In this document: positions 8,548 to 63,549 of the stretch, one piece after another
How the letters are laid out: each line of letters starts with the position of its first letter
How positions within the stretch are numbered: position 1 is the stretch's first letter
Assembly (NCBI GenBank): GCA_964016885.1
Contig: OZ024740.1
Location: 224,564,001-224,628,000, forward strand
DNA: 64,000 nucleotides
From: Eledone cirrhosa
Lineage: Eukaryota
Reading direction: 5' to 3'
Made by a program: the position numbers and the translations under genes
Notes under the pieces: generated by a model
Told to the model about the DNA's origin: nothing
The model's input: the letters and a program-made list of their open reading frames with translations, nothing else
Database searches by the model: none

Positions 8548-10808
8548 AAAGGATAACAAGGACGATTGACCCTCCCTAGCCGGCAGTGCAGACAGCACCA
8601 CACATAACTGTCTAGGAGATAAAGCCATACTCTCCAACCCCAATAACGACTCCGACTATCGCGCACGTTTGCGTACCAATAGAGACAAAGGACATAACGG
8701 CAATAGATTACTTGGAACCACTATGAAACATACGCCTGACCAAAACACATACAAACTACCACCCAACCACAGAAACCGAAGTAGACCTGTCACATGGTAT
8801 AACGCCCCTATTCCATACACGTCGCCACTAACATACCGGGAACCTTCTTCAGGCCTCCCGAACAATCTTTTGCACGCACACACAAATACCACAAGCTCTT
8901 CAATAGACACACCGTAAAATTATCTTTCTCCACAACACCAAACCTAGGCCACACAATAGCACACACTAATAGGGCAAAAATACGAAAACACATGGTTTCC
9001 CCGCAACAAACCACCACCACAACCCAGAGACGAAACCACACACACAACACAATACAACAACCCACACACCACACCCACACCGCATGACACCAACCTCCAC
9101 CGTGCCACCACACCGGTTACACCCAACTGCAACTGCAAAAAACGGGCCGAATGCCCACTAAACGGGGAGTGCCTCGTTAAGAATCTTGTTGCAATAAGGA
9201 GTACTCGTATATAGGTGCGACATCCACTACGTTTAAGGAGCGCTGGTATAACCATAGAAGCTCCTTCAAACATAGACTGAAACGACCCCAAACCAAACTG
9301 GCCGACTTGATCTGGGACCTCAAGGAAAAGAATATTGAACCCCAGATTTCGTGGTCAGTGAAAAGACGCGTGGCATATATCTCCAGTGACAGAAACCACT
9401 GCAGATTATGCCTGGCTGAGGCGGCGGAAATAATTAAATTAAAATCCGCCATAAACTATAGGTCGGACATAATTGTCAATTGCAGACACACCAGGATGAA
9501 CACCTTTTCTGCACAAACATTCGGGGGAGGGCCACGCACTAACCATGACCCACCATAATAATAACCACATCTGCCCCGTATCACCATCGCCCATCTCAAC
9601 GAATTTATTAATTTTAATTTTAATTTTAATTTTAATTTAATTTTATTTTATTTTACTTTATCTTATTTATTGTATTGCATGTAACCATCTGTAAGCCCGT
9701 TTTTTTGTATATCAAACCGCATACATCACCCACACCACAAATCACACTAACCATGACCCAGCATATTACTAACCACCTCTACACCGTCTCACCATCGCCC
9801 ATCTCAGTGAACCTATTTCATTGTACTGCATGTAACCATTTCTAAGCCCGCATTTGTATATCATACCGCATACATCACCGCCACCAAAATGCACATCACC
9901 ATACACCCCTCATCGTTGCAACATCGTATTAGATCGGTCTCCTATAATAGGTTTTACCTTACAATCCATAATAAGGGATCATGTAAATACAATGTCGATC
10001 ATATCACACCATCGCCACCACCACCACACCACACATCGTCATATGTCTACCATACACACCTACAACCTTATCCGCCCCCCCCCGTTCTCTCTGTCTACCC
10101 TAACCTACAACCCCACGCTAAATTCGACCCTGTAAATGTACTGTCGCACGCACACACAACCACCGCCACCACTAGATACATACACATACTTCAACAATCA
10201 TTAACATCATTAGCATCATCAACACATATCATCCCTCGCTCACAGATCGACTGTATTATACCCCCCCCCCGTCTGCCTTACCTTGTAACACACCGTAACT
10301 TCTGATCATGTAATCATCTTGTCGAACATATCACCCCAGTACCACCACCACCACCTTGACCACAACACACACCGCCATACATCCATAAACTCTTCTCCCC
10401 CGCGTTCCCTATGTCACCTTTTAACCGGTAACCCATCGCACCATTCGATCCTGTATATATTTTTGTCGCTCACAACTCCACCACCACAAGACACAACTCC
10501 ATACTTCATCAACACCGCCAACACATACCTCCACTTCCCAACCAACGCAAGTGTGTGTGTCTGTGTGTAAGTATTTTTTACATATACCGGCGTATAAATA
10601 TGCGTGCGTGTACGCATATTTATATGTATATATATATGTGTATGTGCACACATATATATATATATATGTGTATATATGCAAAAGTTTTATTTAAGATGGT
10701 TGGGTTACAACGAGTAAATATTTTATAACTGATATAAAAGCACTCAACAGTTTCTGGAGTAGGTTTACGATATTAAACAAATGGAAACTATATTTATAAA
10801 ACCATATT

Positions 10809-10875
10809 TATTTCGTTTTATATATTTCAGGGATATCATATTAAAAAATATGGTATGCCTTCCTCAGACAAAATA
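10809..10875 (-). ncRNA. Type-I hammerhead ribozyme motif (probably inactive)
   Basis: Reverse-complement partner of 11017-11082, but the cleavage triplet is mutated (GAAA-tatata-AA instead of -TA). Confidence 0.6.
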
Positions 10876-11016
10876 CAATACATAAGCTGTTTTATAAATA
10901 ATTTTTGACATACCTTTTAAATAATGCAACTTCCATTTAAAAATCAACTTTTTAAATGGAAGTTGCATTATTTAAAAGCAATGTCAAAAATTATTTATAA
11001 AACAGCTTATGTATTG

Positions 11017-11082
11017 TATTTTGTCTGAGGAAGGCATACCATATTTTTAATATGATATCCCTGAAATATATATAACGAAATA
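11017..11082 (+). ncRNA. Type-I hammerhead ribozyme motif
   Basis: tattttgt-CTGAGGA-aggcatacc...gatatccct-GAAA-tatata-TA-acgaaata. Stem I is 8 bp (one G-U), the core is intact and the minimal stem III is palindromic. Confidence 0.75.
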
Positions 11083-12343
11083 AATATGGTTTTATAAATA
11101 TAGTTTCCATTTGTTTAATATCGTATATGTGTATATATATATATATGTATGTGTATGTATGTGTGTGTATGTCTACATATATGTATATAGGTGAATATGA
11201 GTGTATGTGTACGTGAGCTTGTATATGTGCATGTATGTGTATATGTGCGTGTGTGTGTGTGTCTGTATATGTGTGTATATATATGTGTGAGTATACGTGT
11301 GTGTGAGTGTGTGTATGTGTATATTTCGTATACATGCGTGTGCGTGCATGTGCCCATATCCATATGTGTGTATGAGTATATGTATGTGTATGTATATATG
11401 TATAACACCTTCTCCATTGCCTGTCACCTTCCCTCCATCTTTGTCCTTCGCCACCCCCACCGATACTCCCCCACTCTCCATATTTGTGACCGCATGCGCG
11501 CATGCACATACATGTGTGTACATATACATATGGCTGTGTGTGAGCGTGTGACGACATGTGAGGGCAAGGGTGTGCGTAAGTGTTTTGTGTTGTGTGTGTT
11601 TATACAACAATATATGTGCACATATATACATATATGTGTGCGCGTATACGTATATACAAGGTATCTGTCAGACGAAGAGCGTCTAACTATGTATCTATGT
11701 AAGGACTTGACACCACCGATACATCCACCACACCACCACAAACGCCATTACCATAAACAACAACACCACTACCCCCCCCCCCCCCCCCCAACATACACAC
11801 ACACGCCAACCCGTCTACTGACCTCATACCACGGCCCATCCCACTAAGCGACCATAACCACCATCATATCATCACATCCGCCCCCACATACTCTACACGC
11901 CAAGACCAACCCGCCACCACCACACCACAGCCCATCTCATCCACCGACCGTCACCAACATCTCACCATCACATCCACCCCCATATACACTACAGGCCAGT
12001 ACATCGCCTTGATCCTCCCACCAATCAAAACAACTCATTTTGTCAAACTCTTGAAACTGTCTTTACCACATAACATGTATTTCATTTTCTTATAACATTT
12101 TAAGAGGGTCCGTCGTGCTGCCGATTATTGAGTCGGGTAGGATCGATATAGATCGAACCTTGAGCTGATCAGTGGCGAAACGCGCGTCACCTATTAATAA
12201 ATGCAATGAAGGAATAATCAAACGTCCTTGTTATCCTTTCAATATATTACACTCTGTATAGCTCTACACCTCATCACAGAAGTGAACCTAAACATCGAGT
12301 GCTCTCGCGGGTGAACCTGCAGTAACTCCTAGTTACATCCCTT

Positions 12344-23250: not shown

Positions 23251-24944
23251 TTCACAGCTCTAACATCCCTTTTTCATAGTCAGCCTATGAACATTTTAGC
23301 TGAGCCTTGTATATAAACTTAGTTTAGGATCTTCAAGAACTCTTAGAATATAGATCAATCCTGCTTATCAGGATTTTATAATTGGATCCAGTTATTAAAA
23401 GAGTATATTAAATCTGTTTATGATAATCCTCACTCCCATAAGTCATGCAAGGTGTTTGTTAACAAAAATGTCAGCAGACTGGTTTCATGAAACAGTTATC
23501 TTTCTCACTTTCCTCTCCTCGTATCCCAATCTTTGCCTTTCCCATCCATCTCTGCAGAGAGATATTTTACCTGTTATCATTAAATCTATTTGCCAACATT
23601 CAACCTTTATAGTTACATATACGTAAATAGATTTAATGATAAAGTTTAAAATATCGCTCTGCAGTAAATAATAACAGGTGCCTGCAATCCGTAAGTTTAA
23701 TAGATAGAGCAATAGAACTATTAATTGTAATAATGTAAAATCTACAATAATGAAATCTATTTTACTAAACCCCTTAATAACAAACTTGAGTGAAATTAAT
23801 GGCCTAATGCCAATAAGGAAGTAAGTATATAATTAGCAGTAAATGAATAAATAAAGACACCTGTTTACTATTCCAAAACAATTGTAATATTCAAATCTAA
23901 ACCAGGATAGACTCTAACTACAAACAACATTTGATACCACTAAAACTAATTCTTTAATATGTCTATCATTTTTCTTCAAGCTTATTCCCTCGATTTTATC
24001 AATGAGAAACTCCATCTAATCATGAATATAAGTTTGTAAATCTCTCACATACTTGTTCAGACAAGTATGTATTTTAGGTGGGTTGGTAATAGAAATTTCC
24101 AACCCACCTAAAAAATGTCCCTACTATATATCTGTTGAATTACTATTCTTGGGGTTTTTATTTATTTATTTTTTTTTTTTTTTTTTATTTATTTTATTTA
24201 TTTATTTATTCATTTATCTATTTATTCATTTATTTATTTATTTACTTATTTATTTATTTCAAAAAAGCACTCTGGCTAATTGACCACTCCCCAAAGAAAA
24301 AACGGCCTATGCCATGAAGTGGTCCTGTGTATCTAAATACCCCCACCCCCATCCACCACCCCTCCTTACCTAAATGTATAAATACCAGAACTTAATATGA
24401 CACCCAGCTTCCTGAAGATTTCATCTGAATGAAACAGTACTAGTCCTGTAGAAGCTCCTTCTATAAAATAAAAAAATGTTTACTCTGCCATGTATTGAGT
24501 ACCTTACTTACTGTGGTTATCCCCGACTCAACCCGGGACCTACGTATATATATATATCGTTTCAGCATGTCTGGAGTATTTCATCAATTGTGGAGAAAAA
24601 TCATATCATATTGGTTGTGCTATCGGGGGTGATAATAATGATGATATAAATATATACATATATGTCTTTGTGAGAAGGTTTCAGCATGGCCAGCTGGCCT
24701 GTCCCTTCTGATAACGGTGCCATCCAGTTTCACACTGAAATGTGGTTTGTGTTAGGAAGAGCATCCAGCTGTAAAAACCCTGGTCACATTTACAGTCTCA
24801 TTGAAGCAAGATACAGCAGAGCCAGTTCAGGCCAAACGTGGATGACCCATCTGACCTATGCAAGCATCGAAAATAGACATTAAACTGAGATGATGATGAT
24901 GTATTTGTAAGTATGCATATTTGTGTCTAATATGCACTAATCTA

Positions 24945-25260: not shown

Positions 25261-25831
25261 ATAGTTGAATTCTAATTATATTCCCTTGCTGGTATTACAG
25301 TAGTAATTTTTCCATTTCTTTCTACTGTTAATCACTAAGCATCAATTATGAATTTTTAACCAAATTTGACAGTCAGACAAACCTATAAAAGCACAGTTAT
25401 GTTTCTTGCCAACGTTGATATATCTACTGTTATTACAGCAAGATTTTAATTCATCCTCGTGTAATCAATTGTCAAAGACCTTAAAAGAAAAGCACTAGCT
25501 CCATTTACTTCTTTCTACATATATATATATATTTATATGTGTGTGTGTGTGTGAGTACATAAAGACACACAGTATATGTGTATGCACATCTGCATACACA
25601 TATACTGATGATGTCTGCAGTAAAAAATAATTCCTTTCATCTTTTTTGTCTTGCTTTCAAATGAAGAACTAAAATCTAAATGTCAAATCTCTTTTATTTC
25701 TTCTTCTAAATGATAAATACGTTAGAGCGTTGGGCACCATGCTTTGCAGCATAGGGTTACGCTCCTTTATGATCTGAGTTCAAATCCCACTGAGGTTAGC
25801 TTTGCCTTTCATCCTTAAAGGGTCAATAAAA

Positions 25832-26972
25832 TATTTATTTGATTCCTTTACCCGTTTCGCAGTTCTTCTGCTTTTCAAAAGTGGAATTGAGATGTAGTGT
25901 TTGTGTTTTTTCTCACATCTGATTGTTCTTTGAATGTTACTTCTGTTTTATGTGGAATAAAAGTGGCTCGTAATTCTAGGTTTTTAGAGAATTTGGTTGG
26001 TTGGTGAATAAGTATAATAAATTTTGTGCCAGTTCGCGTTACAAAGTTCTTATTATATTTGCCTTAAAAAAAAAAGGGGGAGGGCTCAGGTTGTTTTTTC
26101 ATATATGAGTAAAGTTTGGTTGGTTGATGCAATCAGGTGAATAAGCGCATCAGGTTTCGTGCCAGTTTGTGTTTGAATTTCTTTTTACTTAAAAAAAGGT
26201 GGCTCACAAAGACTTTTTTATAAAGGTAATTTGATTGGTTATAAATGAAATTATGACTGTCACGTGAACATTAAATTTAGCGCCCGTATTTGGGAATTTA
26301 TTTATTTATATTGGGGAATTTATTTATAAATAAATAAATTCCCAAATACGGGCACAAAATGTACTTGTTCACGTGACAGTCATAATTTCCTTTATAACCA
26401 ATCAAATTAGATTTCAGCACATCAGTCATACTCAGAACAACTCTCTCCATCCCTATTTCTTGGCACAAAATTCTCTAAATGGCTACAAAAAATTTCCAAA
26501 ATACAAGCGCGAAAATGTAATGTACTTGTTCATGTGACAGTCATAATTTCATTTATAACCAATCAAATTACATTTATAAAAAAAAAGCCTTCGTGAGCCA
26601 CCTTTTTTTAAGTAAAAAAAAATTCAAACACAAACTGGCACGAAAGCTGATGCGCTTATTCACGTGACTGCATCAACCAACCAAACTTCGCTCATATATG
26701 AAAAAACAACCTGAGCCCCTCCCCCCCTTTTTTTTTGAAGGCAAATATAATAAGAACTTTGTAACGCGAACTGGCGCGAAATTTAATATACTTATTCACC
26801 AACCAACCAATTACTTCTCTAAAAACCTAGCATTTCGACCCACTTTTTCCATATAAAACAGAAGTAACATTCAAAGAGCAACCAGATGTGAGAAAAACCA
26901 CAAAACCTCCTTCTCAATTCTACTTTTGAAAAGCAGAAGAACTGCAAAACCAGTAAAGGAACCAAATAAATA
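25832..26972. mobile_element. Foldback / long-TIR non-autonomous DNA element
   Basis: About 450 bp imperfect inverted arms (~25834-26290 vs ~26500-26970), TA at both ends and a nested internal hairpin at 26228-26409. It abuts a truncated family-A SINE (25720-25831). Confidence 0.8.
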
Positions 26973-27057
26973 TATTTAAAAAATAAAAAAGACTCCAGTT
27001 GCATTTTCGATTTTATCATTTTTACCTATATATAAACATATATTTATATACATATGA

Positions 27058-29351: not shown

Positions 29352-29520
29352 TATAGATAGGTAAATATACACGGGTGTGTATGATTATGTATAGAAAATT
29401 ATATTAATAAGAAGAATTCCAACTTTGTCTGATTTATTCGTTTTATTTACAATCCTTTAAAATATATATAATATGGTATTATAATGAAATAGTATGATAG
29501 AATATTAAATTCTAAGTGTT

Positions 29521-29564
29521 CATTGAACAAGTACTTTCATGCTTTCGCAATCTTCAGGTTCATG
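29521..29564 (-). ncRNA. Type-I hammerhead ribozyme motif (left arm)
   Basis: Exact reverse complement of 32615-32658. Confidence 0.8.
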
Positions 29565-29939
29565 ATATGTGGTGACAGTCGAGTTTGCAATTTTCAACTG
29601 TAATGAGATGGGTAAATTTACTACCTTTTATACATTTTATACAGAGAAAAGTGGCTCCAGAATGCAAAGCCCTGTAAACTGTATTTCGACCAATCAGTGT
29701 GTAGTTTCACTGAATTACTACAGCTGATTGGTTTAAGCGTCACGGCTGGTTGAGCATGCTAACGACCAATAGTCATACCCAACGTATCAATTGTTTTGCT
29801 TTTTGAAATGATGAAAATAGCATTTTCTATTAATCATCACCATCAACATCACTTTTATTATTATTATTATTGTTGTTGTTGTTGTTGTTAGTGGTCGTGG
29901 TCATAGTGGTAGTAGAAGTAATACCCCTAGGCGTTATTA

Positions 29940-31773
29940 TTGTTCATTTAGCTTGGGTTTGAATTTATCAATAAAATTCTTTTCTTTGATTTTTCTCTTG
30001 ATTTCACTTGGGCTGTGTAATTTGTAGAATGGGAATATTATAAATATTCCCTGACCACATGTTGCCAGGTGGCCGCTTAGGGGTATCTGACGGACATTTG
30101 GGTCTCTGATTTGTTGACGGTGTACCCGTGCACGTTCCGATAGTGCATTTCCAGTTTGACCGACAATTCGGGCATTTAATGCAGTAAATTAGATTTCTGC
30201 TTTTGCAGTTCATATTTGCATTTGGGAATATTTTTCCAGTTTTTGTTTTCATATATTGACCGGCGTGTATGGATTGACATGTGCCGCATCGATTATCATT
30301 GCATTTAGATAAAGTGAATGATTGGTCTTTGTTGTTAAGGTCAAACTTTGCTTTTGTTAGCAATTGCTTCAAATGCTTTGGCTGTCTTTTACTAATAGTC
30401 AAAGATCGATCTGTGATTAAGCCTTTTAATTCATTACTTTGAGCAATGAACGGTAGGTTTGCTTTGGCAGTGTTGAATATATTCTGTTGACATGGGTTGT
30501 GTGTCATTATAAATGGTATGACCAGTTCTTGGTTTCTTCTTCCTTGGGTTGTTCTAAGTTGTTGTATAGGTATTTTTATAGCCCGCTGTATGCCATTTTC
30601 TATAAGTAGAGATGGGTATTTTTGTTTGAGCAAAAATTCTCTTAGTTCTGTTAGGCGTTTGTACCTGGTATTCGTATCTTCTACAATGGTACAAATTCTT
30701 CTGGCTAGGCAGCATGGGATGTTGCGTTTTGTATGAGGTGGATGGCACGACTTAAAATTCAGATATTGATGGGTGTCTGTGTGTTTATAATATATATCCG
30801 TGGTAATGGTGGTGTCGTTTTTGATTATCATTATATCTAGGAATGGTAATTTGGTCCTACTCATCTCTTTTGTGAATTGGAGAGATGGGTGTAGGTTATT
30901 CAGGAGGATATTGAACTCATCCAGAGTATCTAGAGATTCTGTCCAGATGATGAAACAGTCGTCAAGTTATCTCTTCCAATATTTTTCAATGTACTTTCTA
31001 AAGTCAGTACTATATTTTTCCTCTATTTCTTGGTAGAGTTGTTGTTCTAAGTATCCCATTACAGAGTTCGCGTAAACGGGAGCAAACTTCGTTCCCATCG
31101 TTGTGCCTCTAATTTGGATGTAATTCTTTCCATTGAAGAAGAAAGTGTTGTTTTCCAGAATAAGTTTAACTGCGTCTAATATAAATGGCGCTGTGAATCT
31201 AATGGGAATCACTTCTCTATGTTTTTCCACCCAGTATTTAACCGCCTTTATTCCTAAATCATGTGTAATGTTGGTGTAAAGGCTTACCACATCAAAACTG
31301 AGTAGAAGTGAATTCGTTTCTGTGGTTTTGGGAAGATGGGACAGGAAGTCGATATCATCCCGGATGAAACTGGGTATGTGAATACATAGTGGTTTCAAAA
31401 TAATGTCAACAAAATTGCTTAGACGGTGAGTGGGGCATGTTGGACCAGCTATAATAGGTCTAAGTTTTAAGTCTTTTGGGTGTAATAATTTAATGTACTC
31501 ACTGTTTTGTTCTCTTACTGCCAGTTGTATTTCTTTTGACTTGTGAACTTTCGGTAGGCCATACAGGTTGCTGGGTTTCGGCTCAAAATTGGTGATGTAG
31601 TCTCTTTCCTTATCAGTAAATGAGTTGTGGTATTTTGAAGCCAGGTTGTTCATCTTCTTCATGATGTTGTGGTCTATATTTGACGGTATTTCATGATAGA
31701 ATGTTGTGTCTTTCAGTTGTTCCTCAACCAAATCCTTGTAGTATTCAGTATCCATTATAACAACTGCACGGGG
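29940..31773 (-). pseudogene. PLE RT-GIY-YIG ORF remnant
   Basis: ORFs 30967..31815 and 30004..30864. A stop replaces Y of YLDD, and a frameshift deletion removes Y of YIG; the alternate frame continues VGQTGNALSERARVH...KPKLNEQ*. Confidence 0.9.
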
Positions 31774-32614
31774 TCTTTGACTCTTAGTAAAAGACAGCCA
31801 AAAAATTTGAAGCAATTGCTAACAAAAGCAAAGTTTGACCTTAACAACAAAGACCAATCATTCACTTTATCTAAATGCAATGATAATCGATGCAGCACAT
31901 GTCAATCCATACACGCCGGTCAATATATGAAAACAAAAACTGGAAAAATATTCCCAAATGCAAATATGAACTGCAAAAGCAGAAATCTAATTTACTGCAT
32001 TAAATGCCCGAATTGTCGGTCAAACTGGAAATGCACTATCGGAACGTGCACGGGTACACCGTCAACAAATCAGAGACCCAAATGTCCGTCAGATACCCCT
32101 AAGCGGCCACCTAGCAACATGTGGTCAGGGAATATTTATAATATTCCCATTCTACAAATTACACAGCCCAAGTGAAATCAAGAGAAAAATCAAAGAAAAG
32201 AATTTTATTGATAAATTCAAACCCAAGCTAAATGAACAATAATAACGCCTAGGGGTATTACTTCTACTACCACTATGACCACCACCACTAACAACAACAA
32301 CAACAACAATAATAATAATAATAAAAGTGATGTTGATGGTGATGATTAATAGAAAATGCTATTTTCATCATTTCAAAAAGCAAAACAATTGATACGTTGG
32401 GTATGACTATTGGTCGTTAGCATGCTCAACCAGCCGTGACGCTTAAACCAATCAGCTGTAGTAATTCAGTGAAACTACACACTGATTGGTCGAAATACAG
32501 TTTACAGGGCTTTGCATTCTGGAGCCACTTTTCTCTGTATAAAATGTATAAAAGGTAGTAAATTTACCCATCTCATTACAGTTGAAAATTGCAAACTCGA
32601 CTGTCACCACATAT

Positions 32615-32658
32615 CATGAACCTGAAGATTGCGAAAGCATGAAAGTACTTGTTCAATG
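32615..32658 (+). ncRNA. Minimal type-I hammerhead ribozyme motif (right arm)
   Basis: tgaac-CTGAAGA-t-tgc-gaaa-gca-t-GAAA-gtac-TT-gttca. Stem I is 5 bp, stem II is GNRA-capped and stem III is the palindrome AAGTACTT. Confidence 0.8.
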
Positions 32659-33010
32659 AACACTTAGAATTTAATATTCTATCATACTATTTCATTATAA
32701 TACCATATTATGTATATTTTAAAGGATTGTAAATAAAACGAGTAAATCAGACAAAGTTGGAATTCCTCTTATTAATATATATATATATATATATGGAGGA
32801 GGTTGTAGTTCACTTGAAGCATTGTGTAATGAGGTATAAACGTTTGAATATGTGTAATAAAGCCAAAACAATGCAGGTATGGACATAGAAAAAAGAATGC
32901 AATTGTAAAAGATATTGTTGACAATTCGTCCTTTACCTTAAATTTATTTAAATGTCCTTAATTTTCGAGATAATATCTCTTCTTCATATCGAGATAATAT
33001 CTCTTCTTCT

Positions 33011-33751
33011 ATCCACACCTGCTTCTATAAAAAAGCCGCCAGCAGGGGCCTGTTCGTACATTTCAGATCGGCCCTCCCACTCGGTGCCAAGTTCGGATAC
33101 ATAAGGAACGAACTGGCACGTATCCGGAACAAATGCACCGACGCTAGAGACCGAGACACACACACCACACATTTCCTGGAAGTACTCAAACTGAACGGAT
33201 ACACGACATCCACCACAAACCGTGCCAGAAAGAACAGAGAACACCACACCCGAGGCACTAACACTTGCTTCCTGAAGCTCCCACACTTCAGTGAAAAAAC
33301 AACAACAGCCAGCCGCAGAGCCATCAGACGAGAGGGACTGGATATCCAACTGGCCCACTCGGGTCCTTCTCTGCGCGGACGGCTGGCCAAGAGACACTCC
33401 ACCAGACATGACAACTGCTGCAGGCTAGCCAACTGCCCCATCAACGACACAGACCTATGCCACCAGGCTTACGTCGTATACAGACTAGAGTGTGACAAAT
33501 GCAACAACTTCTACGTAGGTAGCACCACCAGACCACTCCACATAAGAATAAAAGAACACCTCAATACTAACGCTTCCTCATTTAAGAAACACCTAGTTAA
33601 ATGCAAAAACACCGACAAAACCATAACAGTTAGGATAGAAACTAAGGAAAGAAACCTCGGCAATCTTAGAATTAAGGAAGCACTAATTATAGATAAAACA
33701 CAACCACCAATCAATAATAGACTAGAACTCAACACCCAATTTATAACCTGA
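33011..33751 (+). pseudogene. 5'-truncated PLE ORF (RT thumb, Cys linker, GIY-YIG endonuclease), uninterrupted but without start codon
   Basis: Hand translation: FYKKAASRGLFVHFRSALP...CRLANCPINDTDLC...VVYRLECDKCNNFYVGSTTRPLHIRIKEH...LRIKEALII...PPINNR...*; 247 codons, absent from the ORF track. Confidence 0.85.
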
Positions 33752-34134
33752 TAGGGCCTCTAGCCCAATATTTACCCCCCCCCCCCCCACACACACGCTT
33801 ACACCTCCACTTATTCTCTCTCACACATACACACACAAAACCAGTTCTAACACCAGATAACACTTACCCCCCACATTTACGATTAGACTTATCTTCTCAC
33901 ACTCACACACACACACTCACATACTTACACCTTCATGCATTCTCCCACACACTTAAACAGGCATGTATATAAAAAATAAAAAAAAACCCTAAACAAACCC
34001 CTTTTAAAGGGAGACTACTCTTTATCCACCTAATTTTAACTCTTTGATATTAGAGATAGAACAGATACTCGATACTATTTCCTGTCAGCATGGCTTGGCT
34101 AGATATTTAGAACGCTGGTTTGAGACCTTTATTT

Positions 34135-34171
34135 CCCTCTGAAGAAGAGATATTATCTCGAAAATTAAGGA
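34135..34171 (+). ncRNA. Minimal hammerhead-like motif in pseudo-LTR
   Basis: cct-CTGAAGA-a-gagatattatctc-GAAA-at-TA-agg. Both core boxes and stem II are present, but stems I and III are very short. Confidence 0.5.
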
Positions 34172-34284
34172 CATTTAAATAAATTTAAGGTAAAGGACGA
34201 ATTGTCAACAATATCTTTTACAATTGCATTCTTTTTTCTATGTCCATACCTGCATTGTTTTGGCTTTATTACACATATTCAAAC

Positions 34285-34397
<113 letters not shown>

Positions 34398-36644: not shown

Positions 36645-39600
36645 CTAGCTGAATGACGCGGCGTTGCCCGGGTTACTGCTGTTTTTATTCAGATTAGCAA
36701 ACAATAAATATGAAGAATTTTTTTTTCTCATATTCACTTTACATAAAATATGTCAAAGTTGTAATGATAATAGAATTTAGAAATGAAAATCTCTTCAACC
36801 CGGTTTTACCATCTTCTTTTCTCAACCAAGAAACCAACAAAAATCACAAAAAGGGAACCCCCCAAAAATATATATATTAAGAATAGCAAACAGAAATCGT
36901 AATAAATTTTCTGTCGAAAACAAAAAAACAGCCAAAAAACAGGTTTTTTTTTAACGGATGATAAAGTACTGTAAAGTTGTTGGAAGAGCCTGATAGAATG
37001 AGATGAGCAACAGCCAGAAGCACAGCAGCAGCAGTATTTCGAACTGTCCACCATTTAGGGTCGTAATCTTCAGTTTCGATATCAGATTTATGAGAGAGGT
37101 ATATCGTGAATTATTGAGTTTTATCGATTTTTTTTCGTAATTGGGGATCAATTTTAAATATATAAATTCTGCATGACCTAATTGAAGCTATTTCGAATGT
37201 TGATAAGTAATTTTCCATTGAAGGAGGTGTTTTTTTTTAATCGTATAGAAAAGGAACATGCACACACACTCGCTTTTATAGATAATGATATATATATATA
37301 TCTGTATGTGAGTGTGTGTATGTGTTTGTATATATATAAACTCTTTTTGTGTTAAATCATCTCAGTGGTAATGCACGTTACAGGACCTCTTTGTAGACTA
37401 TGTGGCGGGTCATACCGTTGGGTGTGTATGAAAAAAGGGAGTCCTTACTCCCAACTCGCGAGTAGGCAACATAAAGTTGGCCATGAGCAAAGCAGGGCTC
37501 TTTTAGATGAATGCCCGCCACGGACAAAGTTTGACCCTGAGATTTGTTTATGGTGATCGCGAAGCAGGGCCTTACGGGAAACTGATGTCGCCTAAAACCT
37601 ATCGGGATGTCCGTGGTCGAAGGTTGGATGCTTAGCCTTGGGATAATGACGGTCTGACCTTTACCACAACCAGTTAAAATGGTTGCTTCAATGAGATGGT
37701 TCGTCATTGATTTGACTACCATTCGAGTGCCGTTGCACTGTTTTGGGGGGCGCATGTTACGCATAAGCATAATCGGACTGCCGACCTTGAGCTTCGGGAT
37801 GTGGGGTGGGAGACCTGGGGGGTCAAGGCTATTCAAAAACTCTACTGGGTAATCCGTCGCCTCCTGTGGATCGGTGACGCGGTCTATAGACTTAAACATT
37901 TTCTCTTGGGCTGGAATCTTGCCGAGTAGCTCTTCGTTGAGAGCATTAACAGCAGAGTTTTGGGGGGCTAGGATGGCTCTTGAACTAAGCCAATCTAAGT
38001 TAGTGTAGTTAACCTGTAGGTTTGGAAAAACAGCTTCTAAAAGGGCCTGAGGACTGTCAACAGTATTACTGACAGATGCCAGCGACACCTCACCCTTTTC
38101 GTTGGAAGGAAGTCGGCCTTCCTCTATAGCTAGGATGGCCTGGCCGAATTCAGCAGACGTGCTGTCCCCGAGCAACTGCGCCCGCATGTTAACGCTGAGG
38201 CGGAGTGTCCGAACGATAGGCCAAAGCGTCGACGACTTCAGGCATGCGCGGACTTCATCAGCCCATGTCCCTTTGGGGATAACAGGCAACGTTTGCCTGA
38301 AGTCACCCGAAAGCAGTAAAGTCACGCCACCCAAGGGTGCCGAGGAGTTCCTGATATCTTTTAAACTCCTATCTAATGCATCCAGAGCACCCTTATGTGC
38401 CATGGTGCATTCGTCCCACACAATGAGGCAATATTTTGCGAGAAGTGCCGCTTTGTCGGAGTGCTTGCTAATGTTGCACGTCGGCGTATCAGTTCGTGCG
38501 AGGTCCAACGGAAGCTTTAAGGCAGCATGAGCCGTCTTCCCTCCAGGCAGCAAGGTAGCGGCGATCCCCGATGAGGCGACCGCAAGGGCAACCTTTGTTT
38601 GTTGTCGAAGACGCGCCAAAATAAGGGAGGTAACGAAGGTTTTGCCTGTACCGCCAGAGGCATCAAGAAAGAAGACACAACCTAATCCACCCAGTGCACT
38701 GTCAACGACAGTCTCATAAGCAACCCTTTGCTCGGGAAGAAGCTTACGTTCATTTTCATCTAGGAAAGTTGTCAACATGGCGACATCGTAAGATGTCTCC
38801 AACAGAATATATGGACCCAGCACACTAACATTTTCCCTGCTGGCGGCTGGCAAGCCGTATGTTGGCAAGTCATTCCCCTCTAGTTGAAGGAGCTCTTCTT
38901 GGATGGAAATTAGCCCTTGGTTGTAAATGATTTCGGTGAACCCCACTTCTAAAGACGGATTTTGCCGTTTGGCTGTGCGGAGGAAGACCTCGCACAAATC
39001 GTCCCTGTACTTCAGCCAAAGGGCTGAAGGGTTAGCTAAGCCACAATTGTGCAGCAAAAAGGCAAACAATTCCCTTAATTTCTGTGGGGATTTCAGCAGA
39101 GCACCATCGGCGAGGGTCGAGTCCCATTGGGAGTCATCTTCCAAGAGACCAAGCCTAAAGCAGGCTTCTCGAAAAGTGTTGCAAAGTTCCCCGCTTACTG
39201 TTTTTAAGTCAAAGAAACCTTGCGGCCCCTTGACCTCGTGCAGAAGAATGCGCAGGTGAAAGCACTCAGGTTGGGTTGGGGGAACCGTGTAGACTCTACC
39301 GAGGCAGTCAGAAAATTTAACTCCCGGATGCGATTCAATTGCCTTACCAGTTTTTCGCCGTACCCAGCTATTGCGGCGCCAAGTGAAGTAAGACGGCACC
39401 TGAGGGTAAATTAGAGTTCTCGCAAAAGCGTCTACCTGACAGAGCTTAAAGAAAGCAGTTAACGTGGTTTCTTTGGGGTTAGCCGCAACTTGAGCAGCAT
39501 TTGCGGCCGTAAAGTAAACCCGCTGTCCGTTCTCTAAGTGGACCGCCAAGTTTGTGATTTTGGGGAACCTTTCATGGATAGAAAAACAAAATATTCGCCA

Positions 39601-42600
39601 AAACGCTTCGTTTGTACTTATGTACCGGGCCGATAGGTACTCACTGACCTCGTCCCGGTCGGACTGGAGGGCGAATGCGGCGGAATTGCAGCCCTTGTTG
39701 ACGTACTTGCAAACATATTTAATCGATTTAACTGAGCTACAGAATTCCACATTAATGTGGGCTTGGAACGTCGAAGTGAGAAGTGGACAATAGGGGACCA
39801 CCCATCGATTGTAGACTTACAATGGCAGTAAAACCACCGCCTTCAGGCGACCGGCGCCTGTACAGGGGATAGCCGTCGTGTCCTGTCTGGGTCTCTGAAA
39901 CAAATTTCCTAGGGTACCTCTTACTACAGATCCCGTCTTTCTGACACGAATGGTTAGAACCTGGATAACAGGGTCCGTGTATCATGGAAGTGGTGACGAT
40001 GTCGAAGAGTTCTTTGTCGGTGGCAGGGTTGGGGATCTCTGCGCAGATAAATTTGTCGATGTCGTTGGAGTTGATCTTGTTCTGCAGCCACAGTAACAGA
40101 TGAATGTGAGGCAGGCGCCGTTTCTGCTATTCTACGGTGTACGTATGGCATCTAGCAGGGCTGAAGATGTTGGCTTTTGCATAACATGCCTTCATTTTCT
40201 GTATGTTCCTCTCGAAAGCCCTCGCTATGAGGTCAAGGCGGTGGTGGTATGACTGCCCTGGAGGAGTTCTCGGGTGATCTCATCCGACTTCGGGTTGCAC
40301 GTGAAGGTGATGAAGAGGTCAGGACGGCCGTAGGCCCGCACGTAGGTCATGGCGTCCTGAGTCCTCTCTGCATGTACCGAGGTCCTCCAGTGAAGGTAGA
40401 AGGCAGGATGCAGACCTTGCCAATGTTTCGGGGATCCCCGTCGTTGGTCAAGCCGTCTCGCAGGTGTATGTAGCTTTCGCTACGCAGTTGCTGCTGGTGG
40501 AGCAGTCGTTGAAGGCCAGTCGTTCTGACTCCATCTTTGCTGCCATATCCACCGCACATTGGTTCAGTAGGTCCTGCGATCTGTGCAAACTGTTGAAACA
40601 GTTTCTCCGAGGCATGAGTCGGTATGCGTAAAATTCCTTGCAGGACACGGTTTTAGCGGCAGCAACGGAGGGCTGGTTTGGCTGGCAGTGTGGAGTCTTG
40701 AAGTGGTAGCCGTCCTCGCCGCGGGGGAAAAGTAGAGGGTATTGGAGGCTGTCGTAGAATCGGTGTGTTTCGCGTATTCTGTGAAGGCCAGTTGCACGGT
40801 TGGATATGACGATATCCCGGGGGTTGTGCTGGTCTCCGTGAAGGACGACTGCCACCTCGTTGCACGCGGGCGCGTTGAATCGACGGGCGTGTTCTCCGGA
40901 TGGTCTTTTGTCGGCATCGATGACAATTTTGAAGTTAGGCAGGTCAGTAGTCTCCAAGGCGTACTTGAAGCTCTGCACGTAGCTGTTTTCGGAGTGTAGC
41001 ATTTGCTGCAGCGCAAGGAGGACGTCTCTGTCCAGGTTCTCTCTAGTGCCATCAGCTGGGATGACAGATGAGCGCATGTCAGCCTGCTTGTTGTAGTCAG
41101 CTATGAAGTAAATTTGCAGGAAGGCGGGTTGCGCTGACGGCGCAGGCTGTAGAGGACCTACATAGTGGTAAACCTGGCCCTAAACCTTAAAGGTTGGCAT
41201 CCACCCGCTTTCTCGGACAATTTTGGCCCCGAACGAAGTCATCTGGAAGGCGCAGTGGTATTTCCTTATGTTGCCAAGGAAGTCTGTTGATGTAGAGGTC
41301 TCTCCGCTAAGAAGTTCTCGCAAAGGTTCTGGAGGGGCCGCCAAAGGAGGAAGTGAAACCTTCCCATTAGAGCAGCACAGGCCAGGTGGTTCTCCGGGCC
41401 ACTTCTCTGCACCACAGAATTGGCATATGACATCCAACCTGCCTAGTTGAATGTCCGTACGGTCGGAGTATTTTACTGTTGGATCGTAGTTGAAAGCCTT
41501 CATAAGCCAAAATGACTCATGTGGACTCGTTGTTCCTCTGGTGGTATCTCGTCGTGCGTTGTTTGTGTCCAACCGAGCACGGCAGGCTGTTTGATGTTCT
41601 GCCGCAGGGGAGGCGGCGGTGGATACAGCGTTCTGGGACCTTCGGATGCTCTGGCAGCTGCGGTGGAGGCGGAGTCCTTGGACCTTCGGATGGCTGTCTG
41701 TATCTCGGTCTGGGATGCTCTGGCAGCTGCCTTGGAGGCGGAGTCCTTGGACCTTCGGATGGCTGTCTCCTGGTCGGTTTCTGTGGCACGGGAGGCGGCG
41801 GTTGAAGCAGCGTTCTTTGACCGTCTGGTGGCTGTTTGCGGTTTAGTTTCGGAGGCCCTTGCAGCAGCAGTAGTTGCAGCATTCCTAGCCCTACGAAGAG
41901 CTCTTTGGCTGTCACTCTCTGCTGCCCTAGAGGCGGCTGTTGCAACTGCATTACGACAATTACGAATGGCACGATTTGAAGCGGTAACCGTAGATAGAGA
42001 GGCGCTGGGTTGGGCTGTGCTAGGGGTACTTAAGTTTGAAAGCGAAGTAACAGTGGTTTGTGGCCAAAAATGCAGTCCGGCATCCGTAGATTGCTCATTC
42101 AATCGCCTCTTTTTTGAAACAACAGACGATGTTTTCCTACGGCTAAGGGTACTCTTTCTTTTCAGTGGCATGGTTGCAATAGTACAGTAAACAGTAAAGG
42201 GGAAGCAGGTTTAGAGCAAAGGCAATAAAGCGAACGTGATAAGCAGTATTTTGAGGAAGGTAAAAAAAAGTGACAAATTGTTACAATTTTAAGCAAGAAA
42301 AAAGTAAACAAAAAACGTACTGGGAATGTCAAAGTCTGAAAGGTCACAAAATGTAATGCAGTGAGGGTGAAGTACACGTATACACAGTAGCCTAACCAAG
42401 TAGCAAGTGTAGCGTTTGAAAACCAAAGTTTTGCAGGCCACTCAATCAACGATAAGAGTCTGCAGAATGTTTTGATAGCAGTCTTGCCAAAACAGAATAA
42501 AAGCTGCCACCTCCAGCCGTCCAGGAAATTTTTTTTTTGATTCAAGGCGAAAATTTGTCCACTTCTCGACCGAAAGAAAGCAAAAACTGACTCAACTGGT

Positions 42601-43401: not shown

Positions 43402-43457
<56 letters not shown>

Positions 43458-43496
43458 GATATTAATAAATGGAAACTATATTTATAAAACCATATT

Positions 43497-43561
43497 TATT
43501 TCATTATATATATTTCAAGGATTCCAAGTTACATTATGGTATGCCTTCATCAGACAAAATA
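43497..43561 (-). ncRNA. Type-I hammerhead ribozyme motif
   Basis: Reverse complement of 43701-43765 with one stem II substitution; core and triplet intact. Confidence 0.75.
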
Positions 43562-43700
43562 CAATATATAACATTTTTATAAATAGACATTCACGTACCC
43601 CTTTTAAAAATTGACCGTTGTATCCTGATGGCCTCCAAATACAACGGTCAATTTTTAAAAGGGATACGTCAATGTCTATTTATAAAACTGTTATATATTG

Positions 43701-43765
43701 TATTTTGTCTGATGAAGGCATACCATAATGTAACTTGGTATCCTTGAAATATATATAATGAAATA
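43701..43765 (+). ncRNA. Type-I hammerhead ribozyme motif
   Basis: tattttgt-CTGATGA-agg-c-atacca-taatgtaact-tggtat-cct-t-GAAA-tatata-TA-atgaaata. Canonical core; predicted cleavage after 43757. Confidence 0.82.
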
Positions 43766-43892
43766 AATATGGTTTTATAAATATAGTTTCCATTTATTAA
43801 TATCGTATATCTACTCCAAATATTTGTCGAGTGCTTTATATCAGTTATAAAAATATTTGCTTGTTGTATCCCAACAATTTAAATAAAACTTT

Positions 43893-43938
<46 letters not shown>

Positions 43939-58189: not shown

Positions 58190-60727
58190 TACACATAAAT
58201 GTAAAAACCCGTATATATGTAAGTACACATAAGCCTGTTTGCATATGCACCGACATATAACCTTATGTGAGTACACTTAAAACCCTAGTGGATAAGGAAG
58301 GCCAAAGGGGAGTAAAACTGCACTAAAAGAAATAATAAAAACAACTATTAAGAACAGGTAACGAAGAAAAGGGGTGTAAATGTTGTAGTAGAGAGTAAAT
58401 GTTTGTGGTGAGATCTGGATAAGGGTATATAGTTAAAAAGTGATCTGGGTAAAGGATAAAGGTAGTGGGTGTGTATGTATCAAAGGTATGGTAGATAGTA
58501 GGGGGTTTATATAAGTCAAATGATGTATAGAGAGAGATGAGGGAGAAAAAATATATATTGGTAGAAAGTATGTGTTCATAAGGTAATGAAATTTGTAGTG
58601 AGTGGAAGGCGTGATAAGTAAAGAAGAAGCTCAAGGTGGTCGTATGTTAATCCAGTTAAAAAGTAGATGCGATTTCAGGTGCGGACAACATCTAAAGATC
58701 ACGGTCTTAGAGTTGAGACAAGTGGTAGGGGTTTTCAAGTTTTGGAGAATTCTAAATTTTTCAGTACTACACAAAGAACATTTCTTTGTGCTCCTTTGGT
58801 ATTCCCTTGAATGGTCTAAATTGAACTATGACTGACTTATTTCAATGGTTAAATACTTCCTGTTATTTCTTGGTTTAATAACATACAAGGAAAAAATAAA
58901 TGTAGATTTACCCAAATTGATATTGTTGATTTTTACCCCTTTATTAGTGAATCCTTATTAATAAAAGCTTTAGATTTTGCTAGACTTTTCATTAATATTT
59001 CTAAATTAGTAGAAGTCGTTATCTTTCAGGCTAGGAAAAAAATACTCTTTGCTAATGAAGGTACTTGGGTTAAAAAATCAGGCCCTGAAAACTCATTTGA
59101 TGTTGCAATGTGCTCATATGATAGTGCCGATGTGTGCGACTTAGTAGGATTATTTCTCCTCCACACCATTAAAGAGAAATTTCCTTGCCAAAATATCGGT
59201 TTATACCGAGACGACGGTTTGGAAGTTTCTCATACCACCAACGGCCATAACCTTGATAAATTCCGTAAAGACTTAGTCAATACGTTTGCTAACTTAAAAC
59301 TTAAAATTACTATAGATACGAATCTTACTAATACTAACTTTCTTGAATCAATCTTGACCTACATACCACCTCCTTTAAACCTTATCATAAATCTAATGAA
59401 AATTTAAGATATATACACAAAGAGTCATGCCATCCCCTATAGTCTTTAAAAATCTTATTCCTAATATTAGCCGTAGGATTTCTACCTTATCTTCGTCTAT
59501 AGACATTTTTAACCAAGCCGTCCCTTATAATAAAGCCCTCAATAACAGCGGCTTCACCGAACATATTAAGTATTTATCCACTCCTTGTTCTAACACTAAA
59601 CACAATAACAGGAAAAGAAAAATTATTTGGTTCACACACCCCTCTCTCTAACTGTTAAAACTAACGTAGCGAGAAAATTCCTCGACCTCCTTGACAAATA
59701 TAGATATAATAATATATTCAATAGAAATGTAGTTAAAATCTGTTACTCTTGTTGCCCATCAATGAAAACTAAAATTACCAACTCTAATGGTACTAGAGTA
59801 AATCCAGGATGCAATTGCAGGAAGCCGGAAGAATGCCCGTTAGAGGGTAAATGTAATACCAAATCTATTGTGTATGGGGCCAAATTGGTACCAATGATTA
59901 ATAACCGGCCAGCAAGGGGTGAACGATATGTTGGCATGACTCAGGACCCATTTAAAACCAGGTATTATGTATATGTGGCTTCTTTCAAACACCCTGAAAA
60001 AAGAACAGCAACGGCGCTGGCAAATATAGTGTGGGAGTTTAAAGACAAAAACATTCCGTACACTATTGATTGGTCTATTTTAGACCATTTAAGAGACTAC
60101 CAAAGGAGCACAAAGAAATGTTCTTTGTGTACTACTGAAAAATTTAGAATTCTCCAAATCTTGAAAACCCCTACCACTTGTCTCAACTCTAAATCGAGAT
60201 CTTTAGAAGTCTGCACCTGAAATCGCATCTACTTTTTAACTAGATTAACATACGAACGATTACTCAACCACCTTGAGCTTCTTCTTTACTTATCACGCCT
60301 TCCACTCAATACCAATTTCATTACCTTATGAACACATAATTTTACCAATATATACTTTTTCTCCCTCATCTCTCTCTATATATGATTTGACTAATATGCC
60401 CCCTCTACTATCTACCATACCTTTAATACATACACATCCACTACCTTTATCCTTTACCCAAATCACTTTTTAACTATATAACCTTATCCAGATCTCATCA
60501 CAAACACTTACTCTCCACTACAACCTTTATACCCCTTTTCTTCCTTACCTGTTCTTAATAATTGATTTTATTATTTTATATTAGTTCAGTTTTACTCCCC
60601 TTTGGACTTACTCATCCACTAGGTTTTTAGGTGTACTAACATAAGGTTAAATGTGGGCGCATATGCAAACAGGCTTATGTGTACTTACATATATACGGGT
60701 TTTTTACATTTATATGTATGTGTGTGG
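58190..60727 (+). mobile_element. Penelope-like element, Hydra-clade-like, with ~640 bp inverted 3' duplication
   Basis: DIVDFYP, FDVAMCSYDSADVCDLVG, LYRDDG, RKRKIIWF, CNCRKPEECPLEGKC, YVGMTQDPFKTR and CSLCTTE in shifting frames 58830-60220. Segment 58190-58826 is a diverged reverse complement of 60072-60727. Confidence 0.92.
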
Positions 60728-60848: not shown

Positions 60849-63549
60849 GTAATAATAATAAATTTGAAGACTAAAATCCAAAGAGAGCTCGATAAGGATA
60901 AATATATTTCAAATATATAAGAACCGTAGAGCAAATATTTATTAAAATAACAAATTAAAGTTTAAGCGAAGAATCGCTGCTTTCACCCTTTACGGGATCT
61001 TCTGAAACTAACAAAGTCAATCTGTCAACGCAGAAGTGAATATTTCAAAAAACGTTGCAACCGGAGGAAGACTGGAAGACGATACATTGGTTCGTGGAAA
61101 CGTTCCCTGGCAAAGAACGTGAAAAAACGAATATAATACGTCATCATTTTTAGCGGTGAAAAACAATTACACGCAAAGATAAAACCATGTTTATGATATA
61201 AAAGAAGTCGTAGACTAGTATTCTATTAGGTGGTTCATAGAGACATTCTCTGGCAATGAACGGAAAAAACGTCATATGTAGAGTGGGCAGAACAATTGCA
61301 CGCAAAGACAAAACCACATAAATGGTATAACTGAAGTCGTAGACTAAAATTCTAACTGAGAAACCGAATGATTCTCGGCTTCAGCGTTAAGAATAAAGTA
61401 AATAAAATACAGAGGTATTTGAAATTAAATAAATACATACACGCATCCATACACGTACATACACAAGCATACGCGAAAACACTCGCCGTAGGTATACAAA
61501 TACACGCTAGTACAAAAAAAAACAAAAACAAAAACCCGCACGCACATACAGAACCCACGCAACGCCTGTACCCGCACGCATACGAATGTATACACCAAAT
61601 ACACATAAAAATATATATTAAAAAAGAAAATATATATATATATATGTGTGTGTGCGTGTAAACATAATTAAATAAACGTATATAAATAAATAAATACGTA
61701 TATAACAAGCGCACACACATACGTACATGTAAATACACATATGTGTGGAGACGACCGTCAACCAAAACGCAAAGTTCACATGTACACACACCCTACATAC
61801 GTACTAACCCACATACTCACACAGACGCAAAACCTACGTTTACACATAGCCAAAAGCATATGTACCGGAATATATAATATATACGCCATAACATATACAA
61901 TCAAATATACGTACGAGAAAGTATACATACCTTCACAAAACATACAGGTAATATATACTTACCTATACAAATAAGTAATGGTATAAACATAACATATACT
62001 TAGCTACCACATCAAGACGTAAAATATCCGCGTATAGTTCGTACTATCCGTTAGGGTATTATGTGGGGTTATAATACAGGAAAGTTTTGTACAATTTATG
62101 TTTACAAGCCGAAATTGCCTCAGATTTTTTGTTTAAGATGTCGTCTTTGGCGCAGAGTCTTTCCAAGGCCTCAGCGGCGCAGAGGTCACATGGTCTTTTA
62201 TTTCCGTTATACGATCTATCCCTAGCTAGCATCTCCCAGTGTAACTTATATTGGGTGTGGTTGTCTTTTAGACTCCAGATATAAGCTGAAAGTGACGTCA
62301 TATTCCTTCTTAAAGGGTAACGAAAAGAATGGGTATGCATGTAAAGACGCTGCTTAAATCTATTGGTGGTTAACCCTATGTAGGCCCTACGGGACGTGGG
62401 TGTTTCAACCTTACATTTGTAAACAATGTTACTAGAGAGGCATTTCCCGGATAGGGGGCAGTCAACCCGATTCCTACGATTACAGTTAGTACTAACTACA
62501 GGGTTGCACATGTTCCTACGACTAGCTAGTTTAGCTAAATTTGAAGCTGTGATATTATGTGCAAGGTTGGGAGTCGTAGAGTAAGAAATTAATAGTATTT
62601 CTATTAAAAATGTTACTATATTTATGTGTAGGGGGAAAATGCTTCATAATAAGGGAGAGAAAGAAAGATCTTAGCTAATGGTGTGGCAACCTCCATATTA
62701 TATGGTGGGTTATACCATATAATGTGTCGGGATCTATTTTTCTAGGTCTATTCTCGTACTCTGTATATGCTACCTTATTGAGAAATATATTCCGAACAAG
62801 AGCTTCATTGTAATATGAGGAATGGTCGTTGAAAATATGCTCGTTAGTAGATAGACGGGAAAGCCTCAAAGAAACGTTTCTTACCAGGTTCTTGATTATG
62901 CTGGCAGGATGGTTAGAATGCTTATTTATGTAATTAAGCGTATCATTCCGCTTTCTATACGGGTATTGCGAGCTATTCGATAAAGAGAGGGTAACGTCGA
63001 GGTAATTAACGACCGAGAGGTTGGCCTCAACCTGTATGGAGAAGTTGAAACCTTTAAAGAAGGCTGTGAGTTATTTTATGAACCCGTCGCAAACACGTGG
63101 GCCGCACATAGTCATGGTCAAAAGAGCATCATCACGGTACAAACCACCGCCCACTTTGGGGAATTCTTCCTTGATAGAGAAAAGAAGGAAAAGGCCGTTA
63201 AGATCAGTAACATCCGCAGAATCTATGGCGCCCATACTCACGTCGAATGGGGTACTATTAGATTTTTTAATCCAAATAGAGTCGTCGAAATTAATCACCG
63301 ACTTACGGGCATTGAGGATGACATCAACTTCGAAATCCTTAACCACCGTGAGTGTTTTAGCGAAATTGATAACTCTAAGGAGAAGTGGTAAAGTGATGGA
63401 GGAGTAGTAATTATTGATGTCGAATTGGATAAAACGGCAATATTCATTGTTGCATATGCCGTTGAACCAATCAATCACCGCGAAAGAAAGGGGTTCTCCT
63501 ACATTGATATAAAGTAGTGGCCGTACTCGAAAACGAGTTGGCATCCACC
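60849..63549 (-). mobile_element. Penelope-like element, Hydra-clade-like, 5'-truncated
   Basis: FIQFDINNYY, FDVSMGAIDSA, LYRDDAL, NYLDVTL, CNRRNRVDCPLSGKC, IVYKCKV..AYIGLTTNRFKQR and CDLCAAE, then ~1.2 kb of 3' UTR. Microsatellites at both ends. Confidence 0.92.
60959..61009 (-). ncRNA. Variant hammerhead ribozyme motif (CAGAAGA core) at the 3' end of the PLE, on its sense strand
   Basis: Minus: agttt-CAGAAGA-t-ccc-gtaaa-ggg-t-GAAA-gc-agcgattcttc-gc-TT-aaact. Confidence 0.65.

Follow-up and report, generated by a model that had tools for sequence, protein, structure and literature searches.

Hammerhead-bearing palindromes in Eledone cirrhosa: probable stubs of a Penelope-like element joined from two run-off cDNAs

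The stretch of Eledone cirrhosa DNA dealt with here, termed the window (64,000 nt; positions 224,564,001 to 224,628,000 of contig OZ024740.1, assembly GCA_964016885.1), contains two units of about 445 bp, each consisting of a palindrome of about 355 bp and an 88-bp tail, and each set in (TA)n-type repeats. The palindrome is at 10766-11125 in copy 1 and at 43455-43807 in copy 2 (other coordinates are in the Table). Identity of arm to arm, with the centre included, is 96.4% in copy 1 and 95% in copy 2, as against 80% between the copies. Neither unit has an open reading frame (ORF) of 120 aa or more within it; a low-complexity flank frame on the minus strand (10991-11599) overlaps the right end of copy 1. 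A preliminary description, made from the letters of the window, had reported two such ORF-less units with near-identical arms and clear differences between copies, and in all of this it is borne out, the differences being due to subfamily divergence. Both units are almost certainly very short 5′-truncated insertions of an autonomous Penelope-like element (PLE) with the motifs of the Hydra clade.

The evidence that carries this identification is the continuity of arm and tail with coding sequence. At one related locus (loci are designated by L and a number), L101, an arm of the copy 2 type and its tail are followed, after 46 nt, by an intact 742-aa ORF for a reverse transcriptase (RT) with a GIY-YIG endonuclease, and window 43621-43895 is 98.9% identical over 275 nt to this pseudo-long terminal repeat (pLTR) and tail. 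The tail adjoining the ORF is thus the start of the element's 5′ leader. For copy 1 the corresponding match is with L099, where the pLTR and tail that precede the ORF share 98.9% identity with window 10678-10943. Exact junctions of tail with 5′ untranslated region (UTR) number 20 plus 44 genome-wide. Several copies extend beyond the usual centre, and in L031 arms of 1,159 bp, 100% identical to each other versus 96% to another copy, surround a GIY-YIG-type frame; a search with that endonuclease frame yielded 30 loci, with all 29 of the rows listed ending in a copy 1 arm about 1.35 kb downstream, and the remaining locus (L084) is covered by L099. Partial tandems that form pLTRs are present in L099, L100, L102, L103 and L108, and element units measure 3,842, 4,263 and 3,955 bp. 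The combination found, a single ORF with RT and C-terminal GIY-YIG linked to a pLTR, partial tandems, and an inverted 5′-truncated copy, is that of endonuclease-positive (EN+) PLEs. The link to an RT ORF that the preliminary description had suggested looking for therefore exists; of its ‘non-autonomous, PLE-mobilised retrozyme-like family’ the PLE connection stands and the separate family does not, given the 98.9% identity of arm and tail to an ORF-linked pLTR.

The RT and GIY-YIG assignments are read from motifs, as is the placement in a clade. The L101 ORF has RWR at 37 (with K to R relative to RWK), DKT at 118, YRDD, CxCx5C at 601, CxxC at 699 and CxH at 726, is without CCHH and has one Cys in the GIY-YIG core. 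Pfam, NCBIfam and PDB searches with the 742 aa gave no significant match, and a homologue search returned 138 proteins, mostly unnamed, with 32-45% identity among the 120 matches listed. For the Hydra clade, PMC8557442 gives DKT, RWK, a CxCx5C linker, CxxC, CxH, absence of CCHH, (TA)n targets and a canonical hammerhead. All of these are found here, with RWR replacing RWK. Hydra-clade elements are generally shorter than 3 kb, a tendency rather than a strict criterion, whereas those here are 3.8-4.3 kb with a long 3′ region. The ORF organization, motifs, (TA)n association and type I hammerhead are shared with such EN+ elements as Hydra-1_Obim and Penelope-13_HM, the latter also having an inverted 5′-truncated copy with a hammerhead on each strand as here (PMC8557442). 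Comparison by eye with Hydra-1_Obim shows protein and hammerhead to differ, pointing to a different family. An asparagine-rich stretch between RT and endonuclease in the L101 ORF (L101:3175-5400) recalls the N-rich inserts of rotifer PLEs (PMC3846280). In L099, L100, L103 and L107, all subfamily A, there is a frame change at a run of C residues shortly ahead of the endonuclease region, which could be a shared defect or a homopolymer assembly error.

The family is abundant, which answers the matter of copy number raised at the outset. In the 3.0 Gb of genome searched, first-look candidates number 2,057 for copy 1 and 946 for copy 2, and exact matches to a 21-nt hammerhead pattern number 6,506 versus none for the reversed control, so the motif is not a chance occurrence. 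The 40 best-scored relatives of each copy are 97-100% identical to that copy, making the window copies representatives of two subfamilies, A (copy 1) and B (copy 2). A rough extrapolation from 70 Mb of one contig suggests some 1,000-1,500 short palindromes in the genome.

CUGANGA, stem II and GAAA are present in all four window arms. The preliminary description had placed a hammerhead in each arm, with a core varying only at N7; the core is intact in three, and in the minus-strand arm of copy 1 U16.1 is replaced by A (window 10818), which contradicts the N7 claim and likely leaves that motif dead. The cut positions it had named (11074 and 43757) are those at which the hammerhead alignment puts the predicted sites. 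With CUGANGA, GAAA, NUH and stems I-III all found, the core is that of a minimal type I hammerhead, the 10.1-11.1 pair being A-U and stem III a self-complementary stub of 2 bp. An Rfam search of the window and of copy 1 gave no hammerhead, just hairpin-type matches under gathering scores, and folding energy is no better than that of shuffles (z +0.41, -0.64, -0.25); the arms are accordingly considered to carry predicted ribozymes from motif and covariation. Among 13 variants from related loci 95.3% of pairs are kept with three two-sided changes, in stem II, and as these rows are related the shuffle control on their pairing is not a probability. In columns 60-67 of alignment A1, a common A-to-G variant of stem III would retain intermolecular pairing via G-U, which is consistent with a dimeric hammerhead (an idea partly from PMC7229834).

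Sizes were assessed in a position-ordered sample, the first 100 hammerhead matches on one contig, which resolve into 74 loci. Two-ended inverted insertions, picked by hand, account for 43 of these; for the other 31 no hammerhead-bearing partner arm is within the approximately 4.5 kb fetched, a few having an inverted tail fragment only. ORF sequence is held by 15 of the 74. The spans of the 43 range from 174 to 5,741 bp (8 of at most 300 bp, 13 of 301-450, 7 of 451-1,000, 7 of 1,001-2,500 and 8 above that), with 21 not exceeding 450 bp. Of the 43, 41 have the tail at a single end (partial in one), two have it at neither end and none has it at both (binomial p 2e-10). Target-site duplications are unreadable in (TA)n. 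A fixed length is not borne out by this range, yet arm ends pile up at a sharp boundary, which is why the window copies have the appearance of a fixed-length unit. Random-length truncation of an autonomous PLE, the outcome that the preliminary description had set against its own proposal, is to a large extent what is encountered, but the lengths are not random.

The boundary is at an initiator-like motif. In nearly all subfamily references a TCACT-type motif is present 186-191 nt inside the arm end, despite differing flanks. When arm ends of position-ordered loci (n=106; one reference in the tally, L161, is still mis-anchored) are counted from its A, taken as 0, 53 are at or before that A and 53 beyond it, with none at +1 to +56. 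Of the 53 short ends, 29 are at -10 to 0 and 7 exactly at 0 (Fisher p 3e-10 for the boundary), and all four window arms end short of the A (Table). Among the 96 arms of a best-hit set, 68 do not extend past it. Arms ending near the boundary adjoin the partner arm or (TA)n, not unmatched element sequence, and single arms abutting (TA)n end there too (L019, L122). Paired arms tend to be alike (20 short/short, 7 mixed and 16 long/long; p 1e-5, with classes assigned by hand). Relative to the boundary, the hammerhead core lies about 90 nt and the cut site 140 nt downstream; ribozyme cleavage is thus not what sets the boundary, and copying would have been from uncleaved template. A control is provided by copies whose tail runs into 5′ UTR (60 of 64 fetched, 54 of 61 rows kept): in these 54 upstream pLTRs three ends are at -10 to 0 and seven at +1 to +41, with no boundary. 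Since pLTRs before ORFs cross TCACT freely, the boundary is unlikely to reflect a stall caused by the sequence. Strong-stop strand transfer of the type known for LTR elements was also considered and is disfavoured, the arms being concordant and there being no second boundary upstream of ORFs. In subfamily A a TATA-like run is present about 23 nt upstream of TCACT; rotifer pLTRs have an initiator-like TCACT together with a TATA box (PMC3846280).

A further feature is a motif of about 45 nt that follows the arm end and is repeated after the tail end, with none of 2,000 single-base shuffles scoring as high in each of two subfamilies. Two hairpins downstream of the start sites fold no better than shuffles, so the duplication is supported as a sequence repeat and not as structure; the duplicated motifs may be protein-binding sites. 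In work with purified protein of an anole PLE, priming took place on both strands of the target, from two internal start sites on the RNA by which the tail is defined; RNA downstream of these sites was required, and the template was mainly RNA that had not been cleaved (PMC11167929). By a related route here, the RT/GIY-YIG protein, probably as a dimer, would nick both target strands, and two cDNAs would be primed, one from either of two internal positions of the RNA; these are 88 nt apart and both precede a copy of the motif of about 45 nt. On a transcript initiated at TCACT and uncut by the hammerhead, both cDNAs would run off after no more than about 190 nt (about 280 with the tail). Their head-to-head joining, through microhomology (0-8 nt) or by way of a few untemplated bases, would yield a palindrome of about 350 bp with an 88-bp tail. 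Long copies would come from templates without an end at TCACT, i.e. read-through tandem or circularised RNA. That the units are PLE stubs made by two run-off reverse transcriptions and then joined is, taken whole, the probable explanation; the run-off and twin-priming mechanism as such is favoured on balance. A more elaborate possibility, which is tentative at best, is that RT binds as a dimer to the duplicated pair of RNA motifs and invariably starts at both sites, each serving one strand of the target, with capped linear transcripts leading to palindromes of about 445 bp, and circular monomers, cut by the hammerhead and re-ligated, leading to long or tandem copies. If true, such a dual-template model would account at once for the inverted pLTR, for the tail and for what the hammerhead does.

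Several considerations weigh against parts of the above. The clade assignment comes from motifs rather than from a tree, and the proposed transcription start is deduced solely from DNA ends. Of the short arms, 46 of 53 end 1-80 nt before the A and not on it, so that end trimming or early stops are needed, and in the best-hit set 28 arms extend past the A, 5 of them no further than +1 to +34. Full-length cDNAs do not accumulate at +1 in the control pLTRs; this disfavours a simple model with a single linear mRNA and means that a second class of template has to be assumed. Arm ends share TA microhomology with the target, and an in vitro PLE study reports initiation without homology (PMC11167929). 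The tail is 88 nt, versus 30-40 nt in the PLE papers cited here.

The junctions between arms are pertinent to how the inversions arise. In the best-hit short copies (19 of subfamily A and 12 of subfamily B, one further locus not being anchored) they vary, being marked by microhomology of 0-8 nt or by a small number of additional bases. A site with two alleles agrees between the arms in all 15 informative copies (p about 5e-5), a further one not being informative. Copies with either allele of this marker site (L001 versus L021 and L028) share the junction of window copy 1, which so arose more than once; with the differing junctions, this sustains the earlier contention that every insertion regenerates the inversion. 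By itself a high identity of the arms is not evidence in this regard, as comparison of the first 100 nt of an arm with its partner and with the nearest other copy is not discriminating (8 closer, 15 ties and 20 further), and extension of arms in an all-against-all manner is confounded by the palindromes.

A fold-back origin, in which one cDNA or antisense RNA self-primes and copies itself, was already proposed for rotifer PLEs (PMC3846280). It accounts for near-identical arms and for their shared allele, and some centres are on small natural palindromes (L117, L048, L016). Its cDNA version requires the tail-bearing arm to be the longer, and among 30 short best-hit copies (L050, with a nested insert, being left aside) that arm exceeds its partner in length in 7, equals it in 4 and falls short of it in 19. 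The ORF lies on either side of the tail among endonuclease-bearing loci, and in L058 both arms reach precisely to the A and are separated by 6 untemplated bases, which needs two run-off ends. These points apply to fold-back of cDNA and not to a version with an antisense template, and fold-back overall is considered unlikely. Less probable still is that the units are remnants, either of long inverted repeats that lost their middle by later deletion or of RT stalling at structure near TCACT. Long inverted repeats are unstable, microhomology is present at junctions, and in subfamily A a hairpin and a pyrimidine-rich stretch are just upstream of TCACT. However, deletion would not halt at one and the same base in many subfamilies whose flanks differ, nor does it fit the single arms that end at the boundary next to (TA)n, and the free crossing of TCACT in ORF-linked pLTRs counts against a stall.

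The other alternative is that of the preliminary description, a non-autonomous retrozyme-like family whose short hammerhead units are transcribed and copied in trans by PLE protein. Known non-LTR retrozymes are likewise non-coding, a few hundred bp, AT-rich and PLE-related with a type I hammerhead (PMC7229834; 10.64898/2026.07.22.740005). Compatible with such a family are the discrete size class, with 21 of 43 two-ended insertions at 450 bp or less, junctions that recur (L005/L017/L023 and L008/L009), the ability of pLTRs to act in cis on foreign RNA (PMC3846280), and a preprint that derives animal retrozymes from pLTRs (10.64898/2026.07.22.740005). However, retrozymes are head-to-tail repeats of 150-450 bp, with same-strand hammerheads that release monomers and circles (PMC7229834; 10.64898/2026.07.22.740005), whereas here the hammerheads are on opposite strands of one palindrome, one per transcript and buried in a long hairpin. 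Only one same-strand neighbour within 5 kb (2.2 kb apart) occurs among the first 100 hammerhead matches, spacings in that one contig and not genome-wide, so that there is no tandem array of the retrozyme type and no short head-to-tail monomers. In longer copies arm and tail are continuous with the ORF, and in both window subfamilies they closely match an ORF-linked pLTR. The short copies are without the second motif beyond the tail and without the upstream TATA-like sequence, and one junction on both marker alleles means multiple origins. A separate family of this kind is very improbable.

Inverted pLTRs and a one-sided tail are already published PLE anatomy, and the family appears to be new but within a known clade. 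In PMC8557442, PMC3846280 and PMC11167929, the PLE insertion unit has in common with that here 5′ truncation, head-to-head pLTRs, a one-sided tail, TCACT and two RT starts. What differs here is that ORF-less double-pLTR stubs are a discrete class with an initiator boundary, and that the motif of about 45 nt is duplicated. The initiator boundary, the 88-nt tail and the duplicated motif were not found in the parts of the PLE literature searched, and literature on twin priming, strong-stop products and recent mechanism in PLEs yielded nothing describing a run-off class, subscription papers being outside the former search and mostly outside the latter. A parallel exists in L1. There, twin priming (reportedly from Ostertag and Kazazian in 2001) is said to involve priming of two cDNAs by the two target strands, with a microhomology join giving an inversion. 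The L1 cDNAs copy different parts of the RNA, whereas here the same part would be copied from two fixed starts, and the product is therefore a palindrome.

Table. Features of the two palindromic units (window coordinates)
Feature	Position	Strand	Remarks
Copy 1 (subfamily A) 88-nt tail	10678..10765	-	runs on into PLE ORF 5′ UTR in source copies
Copy 1 tail-bearing arm (pLTR 3′ part)	10766..10943	-	177/191; ends 14 nt before initiator-like A
Hammerhead motif, type I minimal, copy 1 tail-bearing arm	10805..10880	-	core starts 10867; U16.1 to A at 10818
Arm-joining 3-nt microhomology, copy 1	10941..10943	unassigned (.)	identical junction in L014, L021, L028
Copy 1 tailless arm	10941..11125	+	ends 6 nt before initiator-like A, then (TA)n-type flank
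Hammerhead motif, type I minimal, copy 1 tailless arm	11012..11086	+	core 11025-11031; self-complementary stem III; predicted cut after 11074
Copy 2 (subfamily B) tailless arm	43455..43621	-	hammerhead core starts 43553; 167/189; ends 22 nt before initiator-like A
Copy 2 tail-bearing arm	43621..43807	+	187/189; ends 2 nt before initiator-like A
Hammerhead motif, type I minimal, copy 2 tail-bearing arm	43696..43769	+	core 43709-43715; predicted cut after 43757
Copy 2 88-nt tail	43808..43895	+	adjoins intact 742-aa ORF in L101 counterpart

Several other features of the window were noted. A second, unrelated PLE at 29386-32793 has the same inverted layout at a larger size. Its inverted arms of 1,020 nt are 99% identical and each carry a hammerhead motif, at 29557 (minus) and 32622 (plus); its RT/GIY-YIG frames (30004-31818) have a Cx4CxxC linker, Neptune-like by that motif. 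Fragments of PLEs that are 31-47% identical to the L101 ORF are at 58330-60576 (with 237-nt inverted arms), 62074-63481 and 8806-9507. At 32835-34291 a GIY-YIG-type frame (32942-33751) is between inverted arms of 163 nt (98%), and at 24400-24465 (plus) there is a lone hammerhead-like motif, its core at 24412, unrelated to the PLE family studied. Nested inverted repeats around a central hairpin (25828-26976; arms of 133 and 154 nt) are fold-back-like or resemble a miniature inverted-repeat transposable element. A GC-richer block on the minus strand (37378-42210) has long frames (812 aa and others) that by their motifs resemble a Helitron Rep/helicase, a putative label.

The stubs themselves are ordinary, being copies of an abundant retrotransposon that are most likely dead on arrival, and their value is mechanistic. 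The origin of inverted pLTRs and of tails, and the role of the hammerhead, are stated in PLE papers to be open. In the present family some 90 nt lie between the 5′ boundary and the ribozyme and tails are strictly one-sided, and its intact natural ORF, two defined start sites and duplicated motif give precise predictions for an in vitro PLE assay.

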